From NCBI GenBank assembly GCA_016213735.1, contig JACQZU010000022.1, positions 59,171 through 123,170 on the forward strand: 64,000 bases of DNA, read 5' to 3'. The DNA is from Acidobacteriota bacterium. Lineage in GTDB: Bacteria > Acidobacteriota > Holophagae > Holophagales > Holophagaceae. Shown here piece by piece: positions 1,566 through 39,298 of this stretch (positions within the stretch are counted from its first letter, which is position 1; every line of letters begins with the position of its first letter). Position numbers and translations under genes: made by a program. Under the pieces are notes generated by a model. That model saw only the letters and a program-made list of their open reading frames with translations. It was not told the DNA's origin and did no database searches.

Positions 1566-1656
1566 CACCGCGCACCTCGCACCGAATGGGAAGGACGAAG
1601 GTAGCACTCCCGGCGGAGCTTGCAAAGCCTTCGTGAGACAATGTCCATGCGGGTTT

Positions 1657-1703: not shown

Positions 1704-3122
1704 ATGCGCAAGACCAAGCTCGTGATCACCATAGGCCCCTCCCTGGAGGACCCCGACCTGCTCCGGGAAGTCCTCAGGGAAGCTGACGCCGTCCGGCTCA
1801 ACGCCAGCCACGGCGATGCCCCGAGCCGGACCCGGGCGGTGGAACAGGTACGTACCTTGAGCGCCGACCTGGGACGGCTCGTCCCCATCTTCCTGGATCT
1901 CCAGGGACCCAAGTGGCGCGTGGGGGACCTGCCGCGGCCCATCGAATTGCCTGCGGAAAGCATCGGATGCCTTCTTGCGCCGGGGGATCCGTGCCTGCAG
2001 GGAGCCGCATGGGACATCCCCTTGCCCCACCCGGAGATCCTGGCGGGGGCACGGCCCGGCCAGCGCTGGCTCCTGGACGACGGCTCCCTGGAGCTGCAGG
2101 TGACTTCCGCGGGGCCCGGCGGGGTTCGCGCCCGCGTCGTGAGGGGCGGACTCCTGAAGGCCCGGAAGGGGATCCACCCGCTGGGACTGGAGATGGCCGT
2201 GGAGCCGCTGACCGACAAGGACCGAGAGGACGTGGCCTGGGGGGTCCGCTACGGAGTGGAGTTCTTCGCTCAGAGTTTCGTGCGGTCCGCGGCGGACATC
2301 CGGGAACTGCAACGCCTCATCGCCGCGGCAGGGGGGACCCAGCCCATCATCGCGAAGATCGAGCACCCCCAGGCCCTGGAGCGACTGGAAGAGATCCTGG
2401 AGGCCAGCTGGGGGGTGATGGTGGCCCGGGGGGACCTGGGGGTGGAGTTGGGGGTGGAGCGGGTCCCGGCCACCCAGAAACACATCATCCGGTGCGCACG
2501 GAAGGCGCTGAAGCCCGTCATCACCGCCACCCAGATGCTGGAGAGCATGATCGAGAATCCAAGCCCCACCCGGGCCGAGGCCAGCGACGTGGCCAACGCC
2601 ATCTGGGACGGCACCGACGCCGTGATGCTCAGCGCCGAGAGTGCCGCAGGGCAGTACCCCGGGGAGGCCGTGGCCTGGCTGGCCAGAATCGCGGCCGAGG
2701 CTGACCAGCACCCCCAGGCGGTCCGCGGGGACGAACCGGACCTGGTCCAGCATCACACCGGGCGCACCGATGTGTCCGTGGCCTTCGCGGCCAGCCGTTG
2801 CGCCGAGCAGCTGGAGGCCCGCTGGATCGTGGCCTTCACGGAAGGAGGGGGCAGCGCCCGCATGGTCAGCCGGCTCGCGGGACCCACCCGGGTCATCGGT
2901 GCCACCACGGACCTGGGCACGGCCCGGCGCATGGGCCTCCTCCGCGGTGTGGAACCCCTGCTCATCCGGCGCTTCGAGAGCACCGACGAGATGGTGGAAT
3001 CCGTGGAGCGCCTGCTTCAGGAGCGCCACAACCTGGACCGGGGGGACACGGTGGTCATGACCTTCGGCCTCCCCCTGTGGCGCACGGGCACCACCAACTC
3101 CTTGAAGGTGGTGGTGTTCTGA
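1704..3122 (+). CDS. pyk: pyruvate kinase
   Basis: Full-length pyruvate kinase motifs: MRKTKLVITIGPS, ...IIAKIEHPQALE..., ...MVARGDLGVE..., ...MLSAESAAGQYP...; ATG at 1704 chosen over upstream in-frame starts. Confidence 0.9.
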   Translation: MRKTKLVITIGPSLEDPDLLREVLREADAVRLNASHGDAPSRTRAVEQVRTLSADLGRLVPIFLDLQGPKWRVGDLPRPIELPAESIGCLLAPGDPCLQGAAWDIPLPHPEILAGARPGQRWLLDDGSLELQVTSAGPGGVRARVVRGGLLKARKGIHPLGLEMAVEPLTDKDREDVAWGVRYGVEFFAQSFVRSAADIRELQRLIAAAGGTQPIIAKIEHPQALERLEEILEASWGVMVARGDLGVELGVERVPATQKHIIRCARKALKPVITATQMLESMIENPSPTRAEASDVANAIWDGTDAVMLSAESAAGQYPGEAVAWLARIAAEADQHPQAVRGDEPDLVQHHTGRTDVSVAFAASRCAEQLEARWIVAFTEGGGSARMVSRLAGPTRVIGATTDLGTARRMGLLRGVEPLLIRRFESTDEMVESVERLLQERHNLDRGDTVVMTFGLPLWRTGTTNSLKVVVF

Positions 3123-3123
3123 C

Positions 3124-3285
3124 ATGAAGGCCCTCTTCCGCTTCGCCGCCATGAGCGCCACCAGCGCCCTGGGCTGGTGGCTGGGCTCCTTCGTGGGCCT
3201 GATGACCGCGGTGGTCCTGTCGGCCCTCTTCTCGGGCCTGGGCCTCTGGGGGGCCCACTGGATCTCGCGGAACTGGATGGAGTAG
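3124..3285 (+). CDS. small hydrophobic membrane protein (53 aa), hypothetical
   Basis: ATG 1 nt after the pyk stop (TGAcATG); two predicted TM helices (MKALFRFAAMSATSALGWWLGSFVGLMTAVVLSALFSGLGLWGAHWI…). Shorter than the track's length cutoff. Confidence 0.35.
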   Translation: MKALFRFAAMSATSALGWWLGSFVGLMTAVVLSALFSGLGLWGAHWISRNWME

Positions 3286-3344
3286 GCGAGGCATCTCCGT
3301 CGCGGCAGCCCGGAGGGAAGAAATGTCCTTTCACCACGAAAAAC

Positions 3345-3554
3345 ACGAAAGGGCATGAAAGGGATTCATAGGAATCTGCGATCAACGACCCAGGACCCGC
3401 CGCCAAGGCGCCAGGTTTTTCCTCGCCTCGCGCATCGGCAAGGCCGATACCGAGAAGGCGCCAAGAAAGGGAAATCCAATACCCATGCAGTTCTTGGTTT
3501 GCATGGAGTCTTGGCGGTGAGAACCGACTTTCCGAAGGATTGAACGCCCCTTGG
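3345..3554. repeat. copy A of an about 210-bp low-GC noncoding repeat element
   Basis: Aligns with 7784..7989 at about 70% identity, with shared blocks (gccgataccgag, gaacgccccttgg, ccgccaagg…cttgg). Frame-breaking indels argue against protein coding. Confidence 0.6.
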
Positions 3555-3556
3555 AA

Positions 3557-3859
3557 TCACGCCCATCCGGGGTCGCCTTCGGTCCATGCCCGGAGGGCCT
3601 CCGCGAGGCGTTTCAACTGCACGGCCTCGGTGGTGCGGAAACGGCTCACCAGCTTCCACCCCTGGGAGGTGCGCTGGTAGCGGTGAAGCCAAAGGAAGGG
3701 CCCCTCCCAGGGAGCCTCCCCGTCCCGCCGGGTGCGCACCAGGAAGGCGATGGAGGTCCAGGGACCTTCCGCGAGCACCCGGCGGTCCAACTCCTCCAAG
3801 AGTTCGTCATCCTCGGAGGCGAGGCGCAGTTCGTCGAGGTCGTCGGGCAGGGAATTCAT
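3557..3859 (-). CDS. hypothetical protein (100 aa, acidic N-terminus)
   Basis: ORF with genome-typical codon usage, divergent from the lipoprotein gene; no recognisable domain. Confidence 0.4.
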   Translation of the reverse strand: MNSLPDDLDELRLASEDDELLEELDRRVLAEGPWTSIAFLVRTRRDGEAPWEGPFLWLHRYQRTSQGWKLVSRFRTTEAVQLKRLAEALRAWTEGDPGWA

Positions 3860-3959
3860 GGAGGGGTCCGGGCTTCTCCCAGCTTACGGGATTGCCGATT
3901 TCCACGACCCATTCTCCTGGCGTATCGTGTTCCTGCCTGGACCCTCCGGGGAGGACACC

Positions 3960-4769
3960 ATGAGATCCAGAACCCTCCTCTTCGGCCTCTTGGCTCTTCT
4001 GGCGCTGGCCTGCGCCACCCCTGAGACCGTGCACCGACGCAGCAGCCTCGCGGCCTACCTGGGCGGGAAGGCCCAGCCCCCCGGGGAGACTCCCTCCGGG
4101 CCGGCCCGGCTCCAGCTGCCGCTTCGCCTGGGCATCGCCTTCGTTCCCCCCGACCCGACCGAACACCGTGGCGAGATGACCATGAAGAACCTCGAGGGGC
4201 CCTGGAGCCCAGACCGGGAGCAGGACCTTCACCAGCGTGTGACCGCGGTTTTCCAGGCCAAACCCTGGGCCCTCAGCTTCAAGATCATCCCCTCCCTCTA
4301 CCTCAAGAAGGGCGGGGGTTTCGAGGACCTGGAGGGGGTGACGCGGGCCTTCGGCGTGGACGTCATCGCCCTGGTCTCCGTGGACCAGATCCAGTTCAGC
4401 AGCCCCCGCTGGTATTCCTGGACCTACTGGACCCTGGTGGGGGCCTACATGGTCCGGGGGGACCGGAACGACACCACCACCCTGGTGGATGCGGCGGTTT
4501 ATCACGTGCCCTCGCGTACTTTCCTCTTCCGGGCCGGGGCCGTGGGGACGGTGAAAGGCAGCTCCACCTGGGCCCGGAGGGCCGAGGCATTCCGGGAGCA
4601 GTCCAAGGAGAGCGTGGCGGCGGCCATGGCGGACCTGTCTCCGGCCTTGGACAGGGGGGTCGAGGGTTTCAAACAGGAAATCCTGAAGGGCGCCCGGAAG
4701 GACGTGGTGCTGGTGGACAAGGACGGGAATCCACTGGGAAGTCCCGCCTATGACCCCACCAGGCGCTGA
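3960..4769 (+). CDS. lipoprotein, hypothetical
   Basis: Signal peptide with lipobox (MRSRTLLFGLLALLALAC|ATP); start chosen at the internal ATG at 3960 rather than the low-complexity upstream extension. Confidence 0.6.
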   Translation: MRSRTLLFGLLALLALACATPETVHRRSSLAAYLGGKAQPPGETPSGPARLQLPLRLGIAFVPPDPTEHRGEMTMKNLEGPWSPDREQDLHQRVTAVFQAKPWALSFKIIPSLYLKKGGGFEDLEGVTRAFGVDVIALVSVDQIQFSSPRWYSWTYWTLVGAYMVRGDRNDTTTLVDAAVYHVPSRTFLFRAGAVGTVKGSSTWARRAEAFREQSKESVAAAMADLSPALDRGVEGFKQEILKGARKDVVLVDKDGNPLGSPAYDPTRR

Positions 4770-4811
4770 AGTCCCCTGGGTGAAACCTGGAATTCGTGGT
4801 GGATTAGGTAC

Positions 4812-6044
4812 ATGCGCATCGAAGCCATCGCCATCGGGACCGAGCTCCTCACCACGCGGCGGACGGACACCAATTCCGTGTGGCTCGGGGAACGGCTGGC
4901 CGGGCTGGGCCTGGCCTTTCATCGCAAGACCTGCGTCGGGGATGACCCAGACGATCTGAAATCTGTGTTCGCCGAGGCCCTCACGCGCTCCGAGCTCATC
5001 ATCTGCACGGGAGGCCTGGGACCGACCTTCGACGACGTGACCAAGGAACTCTGGGCGGAACATCTGGGCGCGGAGCTCACCGAGCACCCCCAGGTGAAGG
5101 CCGACATCGTGGAATTCTTCGCCCGGCGAGGCCGCACGCCGCCCAGCACGAATTTCAAGCAGGCGCTGGTTCCCGTCGGCGCCGAGGCCCTGCGCAACGC
5201 CGTGGGGTCGGCCCCGGGGATCTGGTGGGAGCCCGCCTCCCACCCGGGCCGCACGGTGGTGATGCTGCCCGGAGTGCCCCGGGAGATGAAGCACCTCTGG
5301 GAATCCGCGGTCGAACCCCGGTTGAAGGCCCGCGGGGACCAGGCCGTGCACACCCTCCGCCTGGTGGTGGGAGGCGTGCCCGAAAGCTTCCTGGACGAGC
5401 GCACGGCATCCCTTCGGCAACGCCACGGCGGACTGGAGTGGACCATCCTCTCCGCCCTCACCCAGGTGGAGCTCCTCGCCCGGGGCCGGGATCCCGAGGC
5501 CCTGGAAGCCGCGCGCCGGGACTTCGCGGCCTTCCTCGGGACGGACCTGGTGTGCACGGGCCCGGAAAACCTGGAGGACACCGTTCTCGCCCTTCTCCAG
5601 GCCCGCCGCCAGAGCCTGGCCGTGGCGGAGAGCATGCCGGGAGGACTGATCTGCTCGCGCCTCGCCGCCATCCCGGGCTGTTCCCGGGTCCTCCGGGGCG
5701 GCGCGGTGGCTTATTCGGCCGCCGCCAAGCGCCTCCTTTGCGAGGTGGATGCCGGCCTGCTGGAGGCCGAGGGCACGGTTTCGGAGGCGGTCACCCTGGC
5801 CCTGGCCCGGGGCCTCCGTTCGCGCCTGGCCACGGACTGGGCGCTGGGGGTGACGGGCAACGCCGGACCGGAGGCCGACCCGGAGGGGAAGGGCGCCCCG
5901 GTGGGGACCTTCTTCGTGGCGGTCTGCGGCCCCGCGGGAGAGTGCGCCGCCCGCTACGCCTTCCCCACGGACCGGGCGGGCGTCCAGCTGCGAAGCGTGG
6001 GCTGGGCCCTGGACTTCCTGCGAAGGAGGATCCTGGGGACCTGA
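4812..6044 (+). CDS. cinA: CinA-family competence/damage-inducible protein (nicotinamide-nucleotide amidase)
   Basis: N-terminal MoCF-biosynthesis-like domain (MRIEAIAIGTELL…ICTGGLGPTFDD) plus C-terminal CinA domain (…AVAESMPGGLICS…GVTGNAGP…). Confidence 0.85.
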   Translation: MRIEAIAIGTELLTTRRTDTNSVWLGERLAGLGLAFHRKTCVGDDPDDLKSVFAEALTRSELIICTGGLGPTFDDVTKELWAEHLGAELTEHPQVKADIVEFFARRGRTPPSTNFKQALVPVGAEALRNAVGSAPGIWWEPASHPGRTVVMLPGVPREMKHLWESAVEPRLKARGDQAVHTLRLVVGGVPESFLDERTASLRQRHGGLEWTILSALTQVELLARGRDPEALEAARRDFAAFLGTDLVCTGPENLEDTVLALLQARRQSLAVAESMPGGLICSRLAAIPGCSRVLRGGAVAYSAAAKRLLCEVDAGLLEAEGTVSEAVTLALARGLRSRLATDWALGVTGNAGPEADPEGKGAPVGTFFVAVCGPAGECAARYAFPTDRAGVQLRSVGWALDFLRRRILGT

Positions 6045-6112
6045 GGGCCGGCCGGAGGCCTCATGGGGTTTGATCCCCGCCGAGGGCCCGAGGTCCCCTC
6101 CTTCCGTCTGCT

Positions 6113-6754
6113 ATGGTGGACGCCATGGCGTCTTCCGACCCCGCGAGGCTGGCCTTCTGGTGCCTGGGAGCCTTCCTGGCGGGGAGCATCCCCTTCGGCC
6201 TGCTGCTGGTGAAGGTGGCTGGAAAGGGGGACGTGCGCCGGCACGGCAGCGGCAACATCGGCGCCACCAATGTGAGCCGCGTGGGTGGAAAGGCCCTGGG
6301 GGTCCTCACCCTGCTGCTCGACATCCTGAAGGGGGGCCTTTCCGTTTGGCTCGCCCGTCGCGCCGGGCTGGATTACAACTTCGTGGCCCTGGTCGGCTTC
6401 CTGGCCGTGGCGGGGCACGTGTTCACCCCCTGGCTCAAGTTCCAGGGCGGCAAGGGCGTGGCCACCGCCCTGGGGGCCGCCTTCGCGCTGGATCCTGTCT
6501 GGATCCTGCCCAGCCTCGGGCTGTTCGCCGTCCTGCTGGCCCTGTTCCGCTTCGTGAGCCTGGGCAGCGTGGCCGGCGCGGCGCTCATGCCCCTGGTGCT
6601 GGTCTTCCGGAAGCCGCCGGGCCCCGTGTGGCCCGGCCTTCTGCTCTGGGCCGCCACCTTCTTCCTCGTCATCGCCAAGCACCACGAAAACATCCGCCGC
6701 CTCCTGAAGGGGGAGGAGAGCCCCCTCTGGGGACGCAAGGAGGCCCGAGGATGA
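6113..6754 (+). CDS. plsY: glycerol-3-phosphate acyltransferase PlsY
   Basis: PlsY motifs GSGNIGATN, …GGKGVAT…, and a multi-TM profile. Confidence 0.85.
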   Translation: MVDAMASSDPARLAFWCLGAFLAGSIPFGLLLVKVAGKGDVRRHGSGNIGATNVSRVGGKALGVLTLLLDILKGGLSVWLARRAGLDYNFVALVGFLAVAGHVFTPWLKFQGGKGVATALGAAFALDPVWILPSLGLFAVLLALFRFVSLGSVAGAALMPLVLVFRKPPGPVWPGLLLWAATFFLVIAKHHENIRRLLKGEESPLWGRKEARG

Positions 6755-7758
6755 CCCGGCTCCCTGACCTGGCGGTCTTCGGCGCAGGCAGCTGGGGCAC
6801 CGCCCTGGCGATCAACTGGGCCCGGGGGGGTGCGCACGTCGTGGTGTGGAGCGCCCTTCCCCAGGAGACCGCGGCCCTGGCAGCCACCAGGCGCCATCCC
6901 CGCTTCACGGACGTGGAGTTGCCCGTCACCCTCCGCCCGGTGCAGGACCCCGCCGAAGCCTTCAAGGCGCCCCTCTGGGTCAGCGCCATGGCCACCCAGG
7001 TGAGCCCCGGGGCCTGGCGGGACCTGCGCCGGCTGGCCCCGGGGCCCCCCGAGGCCCTCATCCACTGCAGCAAGGGCATCCTCCAGGGAAGCCTCCAGAC
7101 CCTCAGCCAGGCCCTCGCCGAGGTTTTTTCGATCCCCGTGGGGGTGCTCAGCGGCCCCACCTTTGCCGACGAAGTGAGCCGGAACCTCCCCTCGGCCATC
7201 CTGCTGGCCCTCCCGGAACCCGTGCCGGATGCCCGGGCCCAGCAACTCCAGGCCCTTCTGGCCACCGAGAGGCTGCGGGTCTACCTCAGCCGCGACGTGG
7301 TGGGCGTGGAACTTTGTGCGGCCCTGAAGAACATCCTGGCCATCGCGGCGGGCCTGGTGGACGGCATGGGCCTGGGCCACAACGCGAGGGCCGCCCTCAT
7401 CACCCGGGGTCTGGCGGAGATGAGCCGCCTGGTCCAGGCCCTGGGCGGACAGGCCAGCACCGTCATGGGCCTGGCGGGGATGGGGGACCTGCTGCTCACC
7501 GCCACCGGGGCCCAGAGCCGGAACCGGGGCTTCGGGGAACTCGTGGGCCGTGGCTACGCGATCAAGGCCGCCCAGGAGGCCCTGGGCGGCCAGGTGGTGG
7601 AAGGCATGTTCACCACGGAGGCTGCCCTGGCCCTGGCGCAGCGGGCGGGGGTGGAACTGCCCATTGCGGCAGAGGTGGGCCGCCTCCTGGCGGGTGCCGA
7701 TCCCCTGGAGGCCGTCACCCGCCTCATGAAGCGCTCCCTCAAGTCCGAGTGGGCCTGA
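6751..7758 (+). CDS. gpsA: NAD(P)H-dependent glycerol-3-phosphate dehydrogenase
   Basis: AVFGAGSWGTALA Rossmann motif and GpsA-type C-terminal domain; ATG overlaps the plsY stop (ATGA). Confidence 0.9.
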   Translation: MTRLPDLAVFGAGSWGTALAINWARGGAHVVVWSALPQETAALAATRRHPRFTDVELPVTLRPVQDPAEAFKAPLWVSAMATQVSPGAWRDLRRLAPGPPEALIHCSKGILQGSLQTLSQALAEVFSIPVGVLSGPTFADEVSRNLPSAILLALPEPVPDARAQQLQALLATERLRVYLSRDVVGVELCAALKNILAIAAGLVDGMGLGHNARAALITRGLAEMSRLVQALGGQASTVMGLAGMGDLLLTATGAQSRNRGFGELVGRGYAIKAAQEALGGQVVEGMFTTEAALALAQRAGVELPIAAEVGRLLAGADPLEAVTRLMKRSLKSEWA

Positions 7759-7783
7759 GGGAGGATCGCCGAACAGGCTTCAC

Positions 7784-7989
7784 CCCGAAGGGCACGAAGC
7801 GTCGAAGGGATTGGTGTTCATAGGGTTTTTCCCACCGCCAAGGATCCAGATTTCATCTTTTCTCGCGCATCCGCAAAGCCGATACCGAGAGGACGCGGAG
7901 AAAAGGGGATCCAAAATTCCTGCACCTCTTGGCGTCCCTGGTGTCCTGGCGGGGAGTCATCCCTTTTCGAGGTGTGGAACGCCCCTTGG
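7784..7989. repeat. copy B of the same about 210-bp noncoding repeat element
   Basis: See copy A. Lies between the convergent gpsA and GGDEF-regulator genes. Confidence 0.6.
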
Positions 7990-8030
7990 TCGAAAAGCCC
8001 ACACAGGGCCTTTGGCTTCGCAGAGCACCC

Positions 8031-9769
8031 CTACACTTTGGCGCAGGCGGCCTTCCGGGCCCGGGCCAGGCGGAGCAGGAGGCGGACGCGGTGGCGCACC
8101 TCCTGCGCCTCCAGGGGTTTGGGAAGGCGGTCCTGGGCCTGGGCTTCCAGCCTGGCCAGGGGGCCTTCCTCGGCCTTGGCGGCGAGGAGCACCACGGGCC
8201 GATCCCCGCAGCCCGGGACCTCCCGCAGGCGCCGCAGGATGTCCCCCGGGTCCCCCAAGGAAGGATCCAGGTCCAGGGACAGCAGTTCGGGCGGCTCCTG
8301 GCCCAGGGAATCGAGGGCCTCTTCCAGGCTGGCCCCGTCCCGGACCCGCATGCCCGCAGGCTGCAGGTGCATCCTGAACTGGGTTCGCACCGCCTGGGAG
8401 GGGGAGAGGAGCAGAATGGATCCCCCTTCCGGGGGCTCGGAAGGCGGAAGGACGCCGAGCTCCAGGAGAAAGCGGATCCGCATGCGGAAGACGGCATCCT
8501 CCTCGAGCTTGCTCAGGTGGTCGTCGGCCCCCACCTGGGCGGCCCGCTCCCGCAGGTTCCGGCTCAAGGAGGTCAGGAGGACGAAGGGAATGCCGCGGCG
8601 TGCCGGATCCTCCTTGAGGCGCTGGCAGAGCGTGAAGCCGTCGATGCCCGGCATGACCACGTCGCTGAGGACCAGCTGGGCCTTGCTGCGCGCGAGGAAG
8701 CTGAGGGCCTCCGGCGCGCTGGGAACGGTTTCGACGCTGGCCTCGAGGAAGGACAGCCGCTCCGCCAGGAGGGCCCGCATGTGCTTGTCGTCCTCCACGA
8801 GGAGGACCAGGGGCCTGCCCGCCACGGGGACTCCTGCCGCCGGCGATCCCGTCCCCGCCTGGGCGATCCGATTGCGACCCGCGCCCTTGGCTTCGTACAG
8901 GCAGCGATCCGCCTCCAGCAAGAGGGACTCGGGATGACCCTCCGCCACCGGGAGGAGGGTGGCGACCCCCAGGCTCATGGACACATGCGCGGCCGTGGGG
9001 GATTTGGCGTGGGGAAGGGCCAAGGCGGCCACCGCTTCCCGGAAGCGCTCCGCCACCTGGACGGCGCCCCGAAGCTCGGTTTCAGGGAGCAGGCAGACGA
9101 ATTCCTCTCCTCCCACACGAGCCACCAGGTCCACGGGCCGTTGCAGGGATTTCTGGAGGGTCTCGGCCACGCGCTTCAGGCAGTTGTCCCCGGCGGCGTG
9201 GCCGTAGGTGTCGTTGAACAGCTTGAAATGGTCGAGATCCATCATGATCAGAGAGAGGGGTTTCTGGTTGCGAACCCCGCGCATCCACTCCTCCCGCAGG
9301 GTCTCGTCGAAGTGCCGGCGGTTGGGAATGCCCGTGAGCGCGTCCCTCACCGAGAGGCCCTTCAGGGCGTCCTGGCGGCGTTTGAGCTCCAGGTGGTTCC
9401 TCACCCGGGCCTTCACCAGAACGGGGTTGATGGGCTTCTGGAGGAAGTCGATGCCCCCCGCGGCGAAGGCACGGCTCTGGTCAGGCTCTTCTCCCAGGCT
9501 GGTGATGAACAGCACCGGGATGTCGGCGGTCCGGGTGCTGGCCTTCAGCCTCGTGCACACTTCATAGCCGTCCATGCCGGGCATCACCACATCCAGGAGG
9601 ATGAGGTCGGGCTCCTGGTCGTGGGCAACTTCCAGGGCCTCGGTCCCCGTGGTGGCGAAGAGCACCTCGTGCTCCTCCACGAGAACCTCGCAAAGGGTGG
9701 TCAGGGTGGTGGGAGAGTCGTCCACCACGAGGATGCGGCCGCGAAGCGAGGGCGCAGCGGGGTCGACGT

Positions 9770-9773
<4 letters not shown>
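8031..9773 (-). CDS. response regulator with diguanylate cyclase output, domain order REC-GGDEF-REC-(degenerate REC)
   Basis: REC (…[10 protein letters not shown]…[14 protein letters not shown]…), an active-site GGEEF preceded by an RxxD I-site (RPVD), and a second REC (…[14 protein letters not shown]…). ATG overlaps the upstream kinase stop (ATGA at 9770-9773). Confidence 0.85.
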
Positions 9774-27500: not shown

Positions 27501-29010
27501 GGAGGAGCGCCGGTCCAGCGAGGAGAAATTCCAGCGGGCCTTCCGCGGGGCACCCCTGATGATGACCCTGACACGCCTGGAGGACGGGACCCTCCTGGAA
27601 GTGAACGACCGTTTCTGCACCTTGTCGGGCTTCTCCAGGGAGGAGTGCCTGGGAAAAACCACGCTGGACCTTGGTTGGATTCACCCCGAGGACCGCCGGC
27701 GCCTGGTTTCCAGCCTGGACCCCGAGGGCCGGGTCCGGAACCTGGAGATGAACCTGCATGCCAAGGACGGCCGCGCCATCCCCAGCCTTTTCTCCGCCGA
27801 GGTGCTGCAGGTGGGTGGCGAGGCGCTGCTCATCTCCATGGCCACGGACATCTCCGAGCGTGTCCTCGCGGAGGAACAGCGGCGGGCCCTCGAGACCCAG
27901 CTCCACCACCTCCAGCGCATGGAGAGCGTGGGGCGCCTGGCTGGAGGCATCGCCCACGACATGAACAACGTCCTGGCGGGGATCATGGCCCTGGCCACGC
28001 TGCTCCAGGGAACGGGGGACCCCGACGCCTCCAAGTGGGCCGACTTGATCCTCGATGCCAGCCTGAGGGGCAGGAACCTGGTGAAAGGCCTGATGGAGTT
28101 CGCCCGGAAGGAAGTGAAGGAAGTCGAGCCGGTGGACCTCAACGAGGTGGTGCGCAAGGAGGCGGAAATCCTGGCGAACACCACACTCCAGCGCGTCCAT
28201 ATCGAGCAGGACCTGGAACCGGACCTTCCCCCGGTCACCGGATCCCTGACGGGTCTCTCCACCGCCCTCATGAACCTCTGCGTCAACGCGGTGGATGCCA
28301 TGCCCGAGGGAGGGAGGCTTGGCCTGCGGACCCGCCGCGCCGGGGATGGACAGGTGAGCCTGGTGGTGGAGGACAGCGGCCTGGGCATGCCGCCCGAGGT
28401 CCTGTCCCGGGCCATGGAACCCTTCTTCACCACGAAACCGGCGGGGAAGGGCACGGGCCTGGGCCTCTCCGTGGTGTTTGGGACGGTGCAGGCTCACGGG
28501 GGAACCCTTGTGATCCATAGCGAACCGGGGAAGGGAACCCGTGTCGAGGTCACCCTTCCGGTCCGGGGAGGTCCCCGCCTGCTCCCATCGAGCGCCACGC
28601 TTCCCGCGCCGGCCTCGGGGGCTTCCCTCAATCTCCTGGTGGTGGACGACGATCCCCTGATCCTCGAGACCACCCCCGCGCTCCTGGAAAGCCTGGGCCA
28701 CCGGGTGGAAGCCGCCAATGGGGGAAGGGCCGCCCTGAGCCTCCTGGAGAAGGGGGGGGAATGGGACGCGGTCCTGTTGGACATGAACATGCCTGGCATG
28801 GACGGCGTCGAGACCCTCCGCCGGTTCAGGGCTCTGGCCCCAAGCCTCCCGGTCCTGGTGGTCAGCGGCTACCTCGAGCGGCGGATCACGGATGAACTTG
28901 AGCGGCTCGGGAGGGTGGGCATCCTTCCTAAACCCTATTCCTGTGAGGAGGTGGAGGCGGCCCTGAAGGTTCTACTGAGCGACCGGGAGGGGCCCCCCCA
29001 TCTGGGATGA
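24520..29010 (+). CDS. giant cytoplasmic multi-PAS/PAC hybrid sensor histidine kinase with C-terminal receiver (1496 aa)
   Basis: About eight PAS/PAC modules, H-box …RLAGGIAHDMNNVL…, HATPase (…FFTTKPAGKGTGLGLSVV…), REC (…LLDMNMPGMDG…). Confidence 0.85.
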   Translation: MELRPTSELVPLPMEEGLFETFPMGLLVVDGSGRVLRANPAGKGLLGPLEGTPWVLGGRDRPILASDLRPLAPEEFPWARALRDGKALPEVLLGVSSPAGRVVWLTLNATPLDQERALLACQGASEQHRFRALSAATTDGCLRVDLEGRLLEVNEAYSAMSGYTREELLGFRVSDLEAKEAPEETQAHIQRIVETGFARFQTWHRRKDASILEVEVSATFLREAGEFLVFLQDIGYRSSAEAELRLQAWALDQALDRVTVTDLEGRIIYVNQAQCAFLGQPRHSLLGRSVEGYSPGPEGVEAQRRILEGTLERGEWRGEVQTQGPDGRTSLVDLRTSLIRDPEGRPLAMVGVGTDITERRRAEDELAGRETRYRQLVESTKAIPWEFDLETLRFTYVAPQAEALFGHPIADWYGEGFWPAHIHPEDRDWAVSYCMACSGRLEEHEFDYRFMTAEGKALWVRDVVSVFAEGNRPKALRGVMINITDQKQAELALMEHELKYRTLFERVGDYVLVVEPRPGGMPVIVDFNEAALAAHGYTREELMGQPMTLLDPDLTPGVVAERMGSMGEAGLLLEACHRRKDGSRFDVEVRLSPFQLAGRTLLLGVERDITDRKRAEAALAESEARFRQLFEGHAVPMLLVEPESGAFMDVNPAAEVFYGYSRKTFRTFHVWDVNVLPEKRVRERLEECLVRKETQWISDHRLACGEIRTVEVHSSPIQVGGRNFLFSIIVDISKRVEAQEALRTSEAKLREAQNLARLGWWEQDHRSGKVTWSEELYRVHGLDPHGSPPDWKAFQERIHPDDRPRMVERFEEHLKGGRALSGHYRIQLPGGEVRHLRTFIRTEFSPEGQALRSFGTDQDVTEQVLAEAERQRTVSLLEATLESTADGILVVDHQGQVQGFNHQFQQMWRLPQALLDRHEDGALLSFVLDQVEDPSSFLEKVEGLYAHPGEECFDVIPFKDGRVFERYSCPQRLGGEIVGRVWSFRDVTQGRRAEEERRSSEEKFQRAFRGAPLMMTLTRLEDGTLLEVNDRFCTLSGFSREECLGKTTLDLGWIHPEDRRRLVSSLDPEGRVRNLEMNLHAKDGRAIPSLFSAEVLQVGGEALLISMATDISERVLAEEQRRALETQLHHLQRMESVGRLAGGIAHDMNNVLAGIMALATLLQGTGDPDASKWADLILDASLRGRNLVKGLMEFARKEVKEVEPVDLNEVVRKEAEILANTTLQRVHIEQDLEPDLPPVTGSLTGLSTALMNLCVNAVDAMPEGGRLGLRTRRAGDGQVSLVVEDSGLGMPPEVLSRAMEPFFTTKPAGKGTGLGLSVVFGTVQAHGGTLVIHSEPGKGTRVEVTLPVRGGPRLLPSSATLPAPASGASLNLLVVDDDPLILETTPALLESLGHRVEAANGGRAALSLLEKGGEWDAVLLDMNMPGMDGVETLRRFRALAPSLPVLVVSGYLERRITDELERLGRVGILPKPYSCEEVEAALKVLLSDREGPPHLG

Positions 29011-29279
29011 CCGGAAGTTCGATATTTTAATGACCCAAAATCATTTATTATTCGGACCCTCCGGGATTTGCCCCCTCCTGGCTGTGGCGGAGCCAGTTTC
29101 CAGCCTTTTCCTCGACCGTATGTCGAGGCGGGGCAATCCCCTCGGGGGTCCCGGGGACCTGGACGGTGGCGGGGGAGGCGGCGCGGTGATCCTCCCCAAA
29201 GGCCTAACCAATCCCCCCAGCCCTCTTCCTCAGGTCGCCCGTTTCCACGGAGGGGACCCAGGGTTCCCGAAATGGATGC

Positions 29280-39180: not shown

Positions 39181-39298
39181 GTCGCGCCTCCTGGGTGAAA
39201 TGGGTGATTAGACCGATCAGTCTAATCAGACGATAGGCCCCCACGGCCCCCTGTCAAGGGAGGAGGAGGCCGCCGCTGCCCTGCCTGGAAGCCGGCCC

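Follow-up and report, generated by a model that had tools for sequence, protein, structure and literature searches.

A diverged pair of structured intergenic repeats in Holophagaceae DNA as candidate MITE-like elements

What are the two similar, low-GC segments that lie 4.4 kb apart, both on the + strand, in the 64-kb window (the whole stretch of Holophagaceae DNA analysed here)? An earlier note had described them as a two-copy family of ~210-bp non-coding elements in convergent intergenic regions. The similarity itself is borne out: MAFFT aligned 3320-3580 with 7765-8010 from end to end, and blastn joined the cores of copy A (~3323-3583) and copy B (~7765-8015) in a single ungapped 159-nt block (3396-3554 vs 7831-7989, 73-74% identity, E 1e-22). 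Judged from this alignment together with a third locus described below (E 9.6e-14), the similarity is homology and not chance. The nhmmer envelope of copy A spans 3323-3580, and homology extends on the right to ~3583/~8015, so the units are ~250-260 nt long rather than 210. The conserved core does not need the +1 and +2 indels previously invoked either: it is indel-free, and the indels of the MAFFT alignment (7, 3 and 17 nt) are confined to the left part. The conserved blocks quoted earlier are exact and restricted to these two places, with GCCGATACCGAGA at 3443 and 7878, the 13-mer GAACGCCCCTTGG at 3542 and 7977, and no further exact site of either in 64 kb. A 29-nt motif, CTCGCG.A.C.GC...G.CGAT.CCGAGA, likewise has two sites in the window, one in each copy, with 0 expected by chance. 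The low GC content stands, although the values are 0.56 for copy A and 0.57 for copy B against 69% for the window and not ~50% against 70%; across A, B and the Geothrix-like copies described below, the elements range from 50-57% in host genomes of 63-69%. Searches by blastn, motif and profile found no third copy within the window, and no further copies were found elsewhere in ~230 kb of contigs from relatives; copy number looks low. The description as a two-copy family thus holds for the window and fails beyond it, where a third locus occurs in Geothrix-like metagenome contigs.

Both copies do sit between convergent gene ends. All cores of the family fold as a three-way junction in which a closing stem of inverted repeats (P1) encloses two internal hairpins (P2 and P3), and in A and B this core is flanked by a left and a right module. 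The parts and neighbours of the two copies are given here with the basis of each call in brackets.

3124..3285, + strand: 53-aa ORF downstream of pyk, left neighbour of copy A (gene call on an identical Logan contig and in relatives)
3323..3583, + strand: copy A, whole unit of ~260 nt with left module, three-way-junction core and right module (extent of A/B homology; ends approximate)
3323..3372, + strand: copy A left module (repeat search; A/B alignment)
3323-3332 / 3347-3356, + strand: copy A left-module hairpin ATGTCCTTTC/GAAAGGGCAT (repeat search)
3344-3364, + strand: copy A tandem ~10-nt units CACGAAAGGGC, CATGAAAGGGA (repeat search)
3365-3372, + strand: copy A conserved TTCATAGG in the left module (A/B alignment)
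3398..3519, + strand: copy A core, P1 enclosing P2 and P3 (RNAfold; inverted repeat)
3398-3409 / 3508-3519, + strand: copy A stem P1, CGCCGCCAAGGC pairing with GTCTTGGCGGTG (inverted repeat)
3427..3455, + strand: copy A hairpin P2, CTCGCGCATCGGCAAGGCCGATACCGAGA (the family's most conserved block; common to the Geothrix copies)
3520..3583, + strand: copy A right module, containing the exact 13-mer GAACGCCCCTTGG at 3542-3554 (A/B alignment)
3557..3859, - strand: 100-aa hypothetical ORF, right neighbour of copy A (homologues of 89-90 aa in relatives)
~6751..7758, + strand: gpsA, left neighbour of copy B (Pfam PF01210/PF07479; 100% match to a 335-aa NCBI MAG protein)
7765..8015, + strand: copy B, whole unit of ~250 nt (A/B homology; ends approximate)
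7777..7825, + strand: copy B left module with CGAAGGG-type units (fold; A/B alignment)
7777-7781 / 7796-7800, + strand: copy B left hairpin GCTTC/GAAGC (fold)
7815-7822, + strand: copy B TTCATAGG (A/B alignment)
7835..7952, + strand: copy B core (inverted repeats; RNAfold)
7835-7849 / 7938-7952, + strand: copy B stem P1, CCGCCAAGGATCCAG pairing with CTGGTGTCCTGGCGG (inverted repeat)
7862..7890, + strand: copy B hairpin P2, CTCGCGCATCCGCAAAGCCGATACCGAGA (motif search; alignment)
7891-7901 / 7927-7937, + strand: copy B stem P3, GGACGCGGAGA pairing with TCTTGGCGTCC (inverted repeat)
7963..8009, + strand: copy B right module (repeat search)
7963-7970 / 7990-7997, + strand: copy B right hairpin CTTTTCGA/TCGAAAAG, with GAACGCCCCTTGG (7977-7989) in its loop (inverted repeat)
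7997-8009, + strand: copy B small GC hairpin GCCCACACAGGGC, after the right hairpin (sequence)
8031..9773, - strand: GGDEF-domain response regulator, right neighbour of copy B (Pfam)

Filled and empty sites among relatives were observed both at the copy A site and at the Geothrix locus. Between the 53-aa ORF and the minus-strand ORF lie 271 nt here, 6 nt in relative L005 and 30 nt in L009/L010; in L008 this gap is occupied by a different 1.26-kb insert. The minus-strand 100-aa ORF takes its last ~8 codons and its stop (3557-3559) from the final ~25 nt of copy A, and its C-terminus reads ...AEALRAW-TEGDPGWA* here vs ...AEALRSWNL* in L009; the arrival of copy A would have rewritten these codons. 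No counterpart of copy B was found in the relatives examined, and in L008 its gap is filled by a thioesterase gene that has left no remnant here. Neither TA flanks nor a duplicated target nor outer inverted repeats could be recognised around A or B themselves. A 10-bp direct repeat, GCCCGGAGGG, brackets copy A and is not significant, as 22 of 158 control windows equal its length.

The third locus preserves its junctions. A metagenome scan revealed, among the matches listed, this further member of the family in Geothrix-like contigs, where it matches a model built from A and B only. The Geothrix-like relative is ~140 nt long and lies between co-directional genes for a lyase and an aldehyde dehydrogenase, ~35 nt upstream of the ribosome-binding site of the downstream gene. 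The locus is filled in L358, L360, L362-368, L377 and L378-381 and empty in L361 and L375/376. The empty site reads CATCCTA|GACCC (CATC-CTAG-ACCC) with CTAG intact, and the filled site reads CATCCTA[CAAAGGATTCACCAC...GTGGTGGATCCGTTAGTTA]GACCC. Filled alleles have the form C-TA-[..]-TA-G in L358/L360 and C-TA-[..]-TA-A in L377, and the right TA is mutated in L362. Given a TA on either side of the insert and an intact CTAG in the empty alleles, the target is CTAG. The terminal inverted repeats of the Geothrix copies match at 16/19 positions in L358 and ~17/24 in L377, and it is at this locus alone that TA flanks and terminal inverted repeats, the signature of IS630/Tc1-mariner elements, occur together. 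Duplication of TA and a preference for CTAG are described for the IS630 family (PMC2170065; Tenzen & Ohtsubo 1991, by its title as cited there). A 2-bp TA flank by itself is weak evidence, being expected 1 time in 16 by chance.

The Geothrix copies also show how the inserted sequence has evolved. Identity between the elements of L358 and L362 is 0.69-0.80, against 0.71-0.77 at fourfold sites of the flanking genes, and L358 and L360 differ by 5 changes in 138 nt at 98.3% fourfold identity, one of which breaks stem P3. Orthologous copies therefore diverge at or above about the synonymous rate, in near-neutral drift. In a single-gene tree the empty alleles are nested among the filled ones, a pattern that needs precise loss or allele replacement and is unusual for classic cut-and-paste excision.

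How do A and B relate to this shorter relative? Their stem P1 is homologous to the Geothrix terminal repeats but lies inside the A/B unit, whose outer modules are not inverted repeats. Since A and B share ~65 nt on the left and ~60 nt on the right beyond the Geothrix-matching part, they represent a larger unit or a nested composite. At the positions that match the Geothrix TA flanks, both carry identical non-TA bases (by eye), which suggests a common composite ancestor.

On balance, we regard A and B as probably decayed, non-autonomous MITE-like elements, that is, old and diverged copies placed by insertion. The earlier note had listed a REP/MITE-like mobile remnant among its options, and it is this one that the empty sites in relatives and the TA flanks and terminal inverted repeats of the third locus favour. 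With units of 140-260 nt, the elements are short and non-coding in the manner of MITEs. The family is a new repeat family of an ordinary kind. A and B would have inserted into permissive gaps between gene ends in Holophagaceae, as a longer variant with extra left and right modules, and the Geothrix relative would have been moved in trans by an IS630/Tc1-mariner-type transposase. No transposase gene or autonomous partner was found beside any copy. Propagating lineages may have been under selection, for instance via recognition by the transposase, after which inserted copies would drift near-neutrally. Today A and B probably do nothing essential, and at most they may provide stable hairpins at the 3' ends of convergent transcripts.

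The fold raises another reading, in which A and B give rise to small structured RNAs of one family, or to cis-acting RNAs, from the + strand, with P2 or the three-way junction as the functional part (e.g. a protein- or RNA-binding site) and mobility secondary. All five cores are far more stable than their shuffles, with z of -4.0 in A (3396-3522, -58.8 kcal/mol by RNAfold), -4.2 in B (7831-7957, -55.4 kcal/mol), -6.6 in L358, -5.3 in L360 and -3.6 in L362. The same P1/P2/P3 layout is kept across A/B and the Geothrix copies despite different P1 and P3 sequences, and hardly any change is seen in the P2 hairpin, CTCGCG..GCCGATACCGAGA, where A and B agree at 27/29 positions, compared with 73% overall. 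Pairing is kept in 87% of cells vs ~34% in slid controls, and five pairs are changed on both sides, a count reached by 20 of 500 shuffles; these statistics come from five sequences, three of them orthologous, and the inverted repeats of a transposon would yield the same. P3 is one pair longer in L362 than in L358 through a compensated insertion, and two positions of the left-hairpin stem are changed on both sides between A (CCTTTC/GAAAGG) and B (GCTTC/GAAGC; by eye). Against this reading, the RNAalifold covariation term is unfavourable (+2.6), and the counts of G-U and A-C in stems (~6 vs 3, by eye) single out neither strand. Neither a sigma-70-like promoter nor an intrinsic terminator was found within or beside A or B. 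Rfam release 15 gave no match in the whole window at gathering thresholds, and in the two element regions, at E up to 10, chance-level matches alone (E 2.9 and 8.1). Further, synteny is not conserved, as close relatives lack the element at all three loci, and divergence between orthologues equals or exceeds the synonymous rate, with a stem-breaking change tolerated. Of the small-RNA option in the earlier note, the conserved, stable fold thus remains, while the missing promoter, terminator, Rfam match and synteny and the near-neutral drift speak against it, and we consider a dedicated RNA family unlikely.

A shared 3'-end module, comprising bidirectional terminators or mRNA-stabilising 3' structures akin to REP/BIME and ERIC, may appear attractive in that A and B lie exactly between convergent stop codons, form stable hairpins on both strands and have no other terminator-like site in their two gaps. 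However, no T run follows any of these hairpins on either strand, and a terminator scan of 3000-8300 on both strands found none inside 3286-3556 or 7759-8030, which leaves the bidirectional terminator proposed in the earlier note unsupported. The Geothrix copy lies between co-directional genes rather than at a convergent junction, and relatives do without the element at the same junctions, so such a role seems doubtful for the family.

There is a slim chance that the core with its near-invariant P2 is a functional RNA that travels with the element. It could serve some undescribed RNA-assisted mobile system of Acidobacteriota as an orphan RNA of guide type or protein-recruiting type, or it could be a mobile regulatory RNA module that hosts retain near gene ends. 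In keeping with this reading, the fold is conserved over two genera with different stems, P2 is conserved above neutral between A and B, and no known RNA family matches.

Local segmental duplication by recombination, involving neither a mobile element nor a function, would account for two copies in the same orientation 4.4 kb apart, for shared sequence that exceeds the Geothrix-matching part, and for the identical bases at the TA-flank positions. We judge it improbable: nothing beyond the ~250-nt unit is duplicated, and a homologous element stands at an unrelated locus in a different genus, where its junctions are transposon-like. At 27% divergence between the copies, any duplication event would be old, and with unrelated flanking genes this does not fit the recent local duplication of flanking coding sequence that the earlier note had named as a refutation of its own reading.

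Least probable are small protein-coding genes or pseudogene fragments, for although one frame is open through the 159-nt core in both copies with 30 of 53 residues identical, that frame lacks a start codon, the five copies have no ORF or frame in common, the 62-aa ORF has no Pfam match, a profile of the frame matched none of 1.84 billion representative proteins, and gene callers predicted nothing over the elements on any contig examined. Because the A/B mismatches show no preference for any codon phase (12/16/15), the core is, on this substitution pattern, non-coding, in agreement with the earlier note.

Mobile elements and repeats are almost undescribed in Acidobacteriota, particularly in Holophagaceae, and in the full-text literature on Geothrix no work on miniature inverted-repeat elements was found by title or abstract. 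A defined repeat family would reduce spurious ORF and small-RNA calls in Holophagaceae MAGs, mark recent genome change such as an insertion that alters the C-terminus of a neighbouring protein, and could lead to an active IS and its target rules. Were the conserved hairpin a functional RNA, the family would be of more interest; the present evidence points to an ordinary element in an under-studied lineage.

Set among known systems, A, B and their Geothrix relative resemble the PATEs of IS200/IS605 and orphan transposon guide RNAs (omega RNA, IS110 bridge RNA) in being small, structured and putatively mobile non-coding units with a conserved internal hairpin that could be a protein-recognition site; such systems can also excise without a scar, and seamless empty sites are seen at the Geothrix locus. 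However, the ends of IS200/IS605 elements are not inverted repeats, whereas the element ends here pair; no tnpA, tnpB or IS110 gene was found adjoining any copy, and no Rfam model of the omega RNA or bridge RNA type matched. REP/BIME and ERIC sequences are likewise imperfect intergenic palindromes, often between convergent genes and patchy among strains; they are transcribed together with the genes beside them and can influence the 3' ends of mRNAs. REPs are 20-40 nt long, occur in hundreds of copies and are accompanied by a RAYT transposase, none of which is seen here, where the units measure 140-260 nt and number two in 64 kb. ERIC is an enterobacterial repeat whose sequence is unrelated. 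The remaining comparison is with bacterial MITEs derived from IS630/Tc1-mariner, such as the Correia elements of Neisseria and RUP of Streptococcus pneumoniae. Unlike those, the family has no sequence similarity to known elements that we could find and very few copies seen, A and B carry extra modules but neither TA flanks nor outer inverted repeats that can be recognised, and in place of a simple foldback the interior forms a three-way junction that includes a strongly conserved hairpin. Like them, it consists of non-coding units of 100-250 nt, AT-richer than the host, which are intergenic at gene ends, have filled and empty alleles among relatives and, at the Geothrix locus, bear terminal inverted repeats that fold into a stem, with TA on both sides and CTAG as the target. 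For the putative mobility of the family, this TA/CTAG junction favours a DDE-type over a RAYT-type mechanism.

Copies A and B, two noncoding hairpin-forming repeats in the window, are homologous. Reading the sequence and aligning 3320-3580 with 7765-8010 bore out the earlier note's claim of two related plus-strand segments, which share an ungapped 159-nt block (3396-3554 versus 7831-7989) at 73-74% identity (blastn, E = 1e-22). Leftward of this block the similarity is weaker and gapped (indels of 7, 3 and 17 nt), and rightward it continues about 30 nt past the end first given, so the units measure about 250-260 nt (A ~3323-3583, B ~7765-8015) instead of the ~210 bp proposed. The 13-mers quoted in that note are exact and unique to the A and B sites, and a degenerate 29-nt motif of the central hairpin matches only these sites in the window (0 expected). 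GC content is indeed low (0.56 in A and 0.57 in B versus 0.69 for the window), though not as low as the ~50% reported. No third copy was detected in the 64-kb window by blastn, by nhmmer with two-, three- and four-sequence models or with the degenerate P2 motif, and none of the window's other low-GC islands is related to the element; the two-copy description holds within the window but not beyond it, where a related element lies at a third locus. In passing, we also observed a low-GC intergenic stretch at 39200-39240 with a 7-bp inverted repeat (ATTAGAC-N6-GTCTAAT) that looks like an operator, and at 29010-29060 a strikingly AT-rich segment, CGATATTTTAATGACCCAAAATCATTTATTATTCGG, amid 69% GC, perhaps a promoter or regulatory region.

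Genes around copies A and B, in order (from Pfam and from gene calls made on a Logan contig of identical sequence)
pyk, first in order
3124-3285, plus strand, 53-aa ORF, left of copy A
3557-3859, minus strand, 100-aa ORF, right of copy A
269-aa ORF, cinA and plsY, in that order, between the 100-aa ORF and gpsA
~6751-7758, plus strand, gpsA, left of copy B
8031-9773, minus strand, GGDEF response regulator gene, right of copy B
hybrid histidine kinase gene, after the GGDEF response regulator gene

This order confirms the convergent setting, as A and B each occupy the space between two converging stop codons. The window GpsA is identical to MBI4913407.1 (NCBI 'MAG: Acidobacteria bacterium'); its next relatives share 81% identity, and named Geothrix and Holophagaceae proteins about 65-70%. 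At the copy A site the two stop codons are 271 nt apart in the window, 6 nt apart in the related contig L005 and 30 nt apart in the related contigs L009/L010, while in a further relative, L008, this space is taken up by an unrelated insert of 1.26 kb that carries two PF05635 genes. The window 100-aa ORF ends in ...AEALRAW-TEGDPGWA (stop) and its L009 homologue in ...AEALRSWNL (stop), so the final ~8 codons of the former, together with its stop, are supplied by copy A. Downstream of gpsA, relatives carry a thioesterase gene (L008) or an alcohol dehydrogenase gene (L005, L009); in L008 the thioesterase gene occupies the gpsA-GGDEF gap, and a search for traces of it in the window found none. A perfect 10-bp direct repeat, GCCCGGAGGG, surrounds copy A (3308-3317 and 3588-3597) and was rejected as a target duplication because a repeat of that length is present in 14% of control windows (22 of 158). 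PF05635 is the '23S rRNA intervening sequence protein' family of four-helix-bundle proteins. In the L008 insert (270-1530; ENA ERZ27284379) its two genes are divergently oriented and each is bracketed by long hexamer arrays (CCACGG/CACGGC); the insert has the look of a mobile cassette in its own right, or of an insertion hot spot.

A metagenome scan gave one true match among the 120 matches listed, the Geothrix-like contig L358, which was picked out by nhmmer with the A/B model (E = 9.6e-14). A genome-collection scan with the pattern GCATCNGCAANGCCGATACCGAG, which is too narrow for the Geothrix variants and would let them escape, returned three chance matches in unrelated MAGs; since there was no self-match, the source genome is absent from that collection. 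Two scans of IMG/VR yielded chance matches only, and a distant blastn search of PLSDB plasmids found no similarity to the element. With no match in Rfam or PLSDB, and with a full-text literature search yielding nothing that, by title and abstract, deals with repeats, this looks like a repeat family of a familiar kind that has not been described before.

The L358 element is oriented against its neighbors, two genes that share one direction: the 3' end of a gene for a beta-eliminating lyase and the 5' end of one for an aldehyde dehydrogenase (ALDH), the latter with many Geothrix homologs at 80-91% identity. Other Geothrix-like metagenome contigs cover the same locus with or without the element.

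Alleles of the lyase/ALDH locus, with ALDH identity
L360, L378-381: element present, 99%, two haplotypes
L362-L368: element present in a diverged form, 89%
L377: element present, gap expanded to 241 nt, 87%
L361: element absent, gap 31-33 nt, 91%
L375/L376: element absent, gap 31-33 nt, 89%

In the empty site CATCCTA directly abuts GACCCAGGCC, and the filled site of L358 reads CATCCTA[CAAAGGATTCACCAC ... GTGGTGGATCCGTTAGTTA]GACCCAGGCC with sharp edges, so the insert sits inside CTAG with TA on either side. L377 has the same TA-flanked CTAG arrangement, and L362 carries a mutation in the right TA. The ends of the element are inverted repeats (16/19 in L358, ~17/24 in L377). In a neighbor-joining tree of the dehydrogenase gene, the two empty alleles are nested among filled ones; the simplest history is that the element inserted long ago and was later lost seamlessly or swapped for an empty allele, of which this single-gene tree with its short internal branches is only indicative. 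A suspected IS within L364 proved to be merely an assembly difference. Downstream of the ALDH gene, L375 has a 334-nt GC-rich gap (3303-3638) where relatives have ~10-30 nt; it contains several long palindromes, for instance GGGCAACGCC...GGCGTTGCCC, and may be another inserted element.

All copies share a part of ~120-140 nt that is predicted to fold into two inner hairpins (P2 and P3) enclosed by a closing stem, P1. In the Geothrix element the inverted repeats correspond to P1. The 3' strand of P2 (CTCGCG.A.C.GC-loop-G.CGAT.CCGAGA) shows no change among A, B and L358, and P3 varies in sequence and length. Against dinucleotide shuffles, fold z-scores were -4.0 for A, -4.2 for B, -6.6 for L358, -5.3 for L360 and -3.6 for L362, and in the alignment of these five sequences 87% of cells are paired versus ~34% with slid partners. 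Five pairs changed on both sides (equalled in 20 of 500 shuffles) and the RNAalifold covariation term was unfavorable (+2.6); these statistics are not proof of RNA function, since three of the five sequences are orthologous and transposon inverted repeats are expected anyway.

A and B have additional modules. The left one combines a hairpin with two or three ~10-nt units in tandem (CAYGAAAGGG) and with the conserved TTCATAGG; the right one has a hairpin with the loop GAACGCCCCTTGG followed by a small GC hairpin. As candidate outer inverted repeats of A and B, these modules scored at shuffle level, and they are not inverted copies of one another. By eye, an 8-nt copy-specific direct repeat flanks the core (GGGATTCA/AGGATTGA in A, GGTGTTCA/GGTGTGGA in B) and could have been left by a nested insertion, although with two positions only we place no weight on it. 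In the Geothrix copies, P3 stems are made up of similar short units (CACGAAG for L358; CACAAAG/CTTTGTG, three times over, for L377), which suggests growth by slippage. Elsewhere in L377 (4400-4550), between convergent aldehyde dehydrogenase and short-chain dehydrogenase genes, there is a long hairpin in which CACAGAG-type units, four in tandem, pair with their complements. With its upstream A run and downstream T run it is bidirectional-terminator-like, and its unit-repeat build resembles these P3 stems. A hairpin upstream of pyk in the window (1590-1650; GGACGAAGG...CCTTCGTGAG) contains the CACGAAG-like heptamer seen repeatedly in the family, perhaps by chance.

On balance, we consider it somewhat more likely than not that these repeats form a small Holophagaceae family of MITE-like, non-autonomous elements. 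The data show homology, noncoding nature, polymorphism of the insertion type, the TA/CTAG junction, inverted repeats, a conserved fold and nearly neutral drift. A and B would be old, longer and decayed relatives of the Geothrix member, with ends that cannot be fixed; we infer this history, the transposase class and the lack of present-day function. Several points tell against the MITE-like reading: neither A nor B has its own target duplication or outer repeats, few copies are seen (two in the 64-kb window), no partner IS was found beside any copy, and the seamless empty sites are unexpected under cut-and-paste excision.

A structured sRNA or cis-RNA is the best supported of the rivals, though unlikely. 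P2 is conserved at 27 of 29 positions between A and B versus 73% overall, which fits a constraint on propagating lineages and would also fit an RNA role. However, Rfam 15, searched over the whole window at gathering thresholds, gave no match to a known family, its permissive E-value mode, run on the A and B regions, gave only chance-level matches (E = 2.9 and 8.1), and a consensus scan of 3000-8300 found no sigma-70-like promoter. Moreover, between L358 and L362 the element is 0.69 identical with gaps and 0.80 without, against fourfold-site identities of 0.77 and 0.71 in the flanking genes; between L358 and L360 the values are 0.964 (5 changes in 138 nt) and 0.983, and one of the five changes disrupts a P3 pair, so inserted copies drift at about the neutral rate. 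That the conserved hairpin is a functional, mobile RNA seems very doubtful. A 3'-end hairpin or terminator module, also raised in the earlier note, comes second and is decidedly improbable, as a consensus scan found no hairpin with a T run inside A or B. A local segmental duplication as the origin of the two copies, third among the rivals, has a smaller chance still. Coding sequence can be dismissed almost entirely, given that mismatches in the ungapped A/B block fall 12/16/15 by codon phase, in keeping with the noncoding nature already proposed, that the only frame open in both A and B lacks a start codon, that no frame or ORF is shared across the five copies, that the 62-aa ORF over copy A has no Pfam match, that a profile of the A/B ORF frame found 0 matches (and no further copies) among 1.84 billion representative proteins, and that none of the copies was assigned a gene by gene callers.

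The MITE-like reading can be set beside known transposons. IS630-family elements insert at TA and duplicate it, and IS630 itself favors CTAG (PMC2170065 and the title of Tenzen & Ohtsubo 1991, cited there). Compared with IS630/Tc1-mariner elements, the Geothrix member of the family has this TA/CTAG signature.
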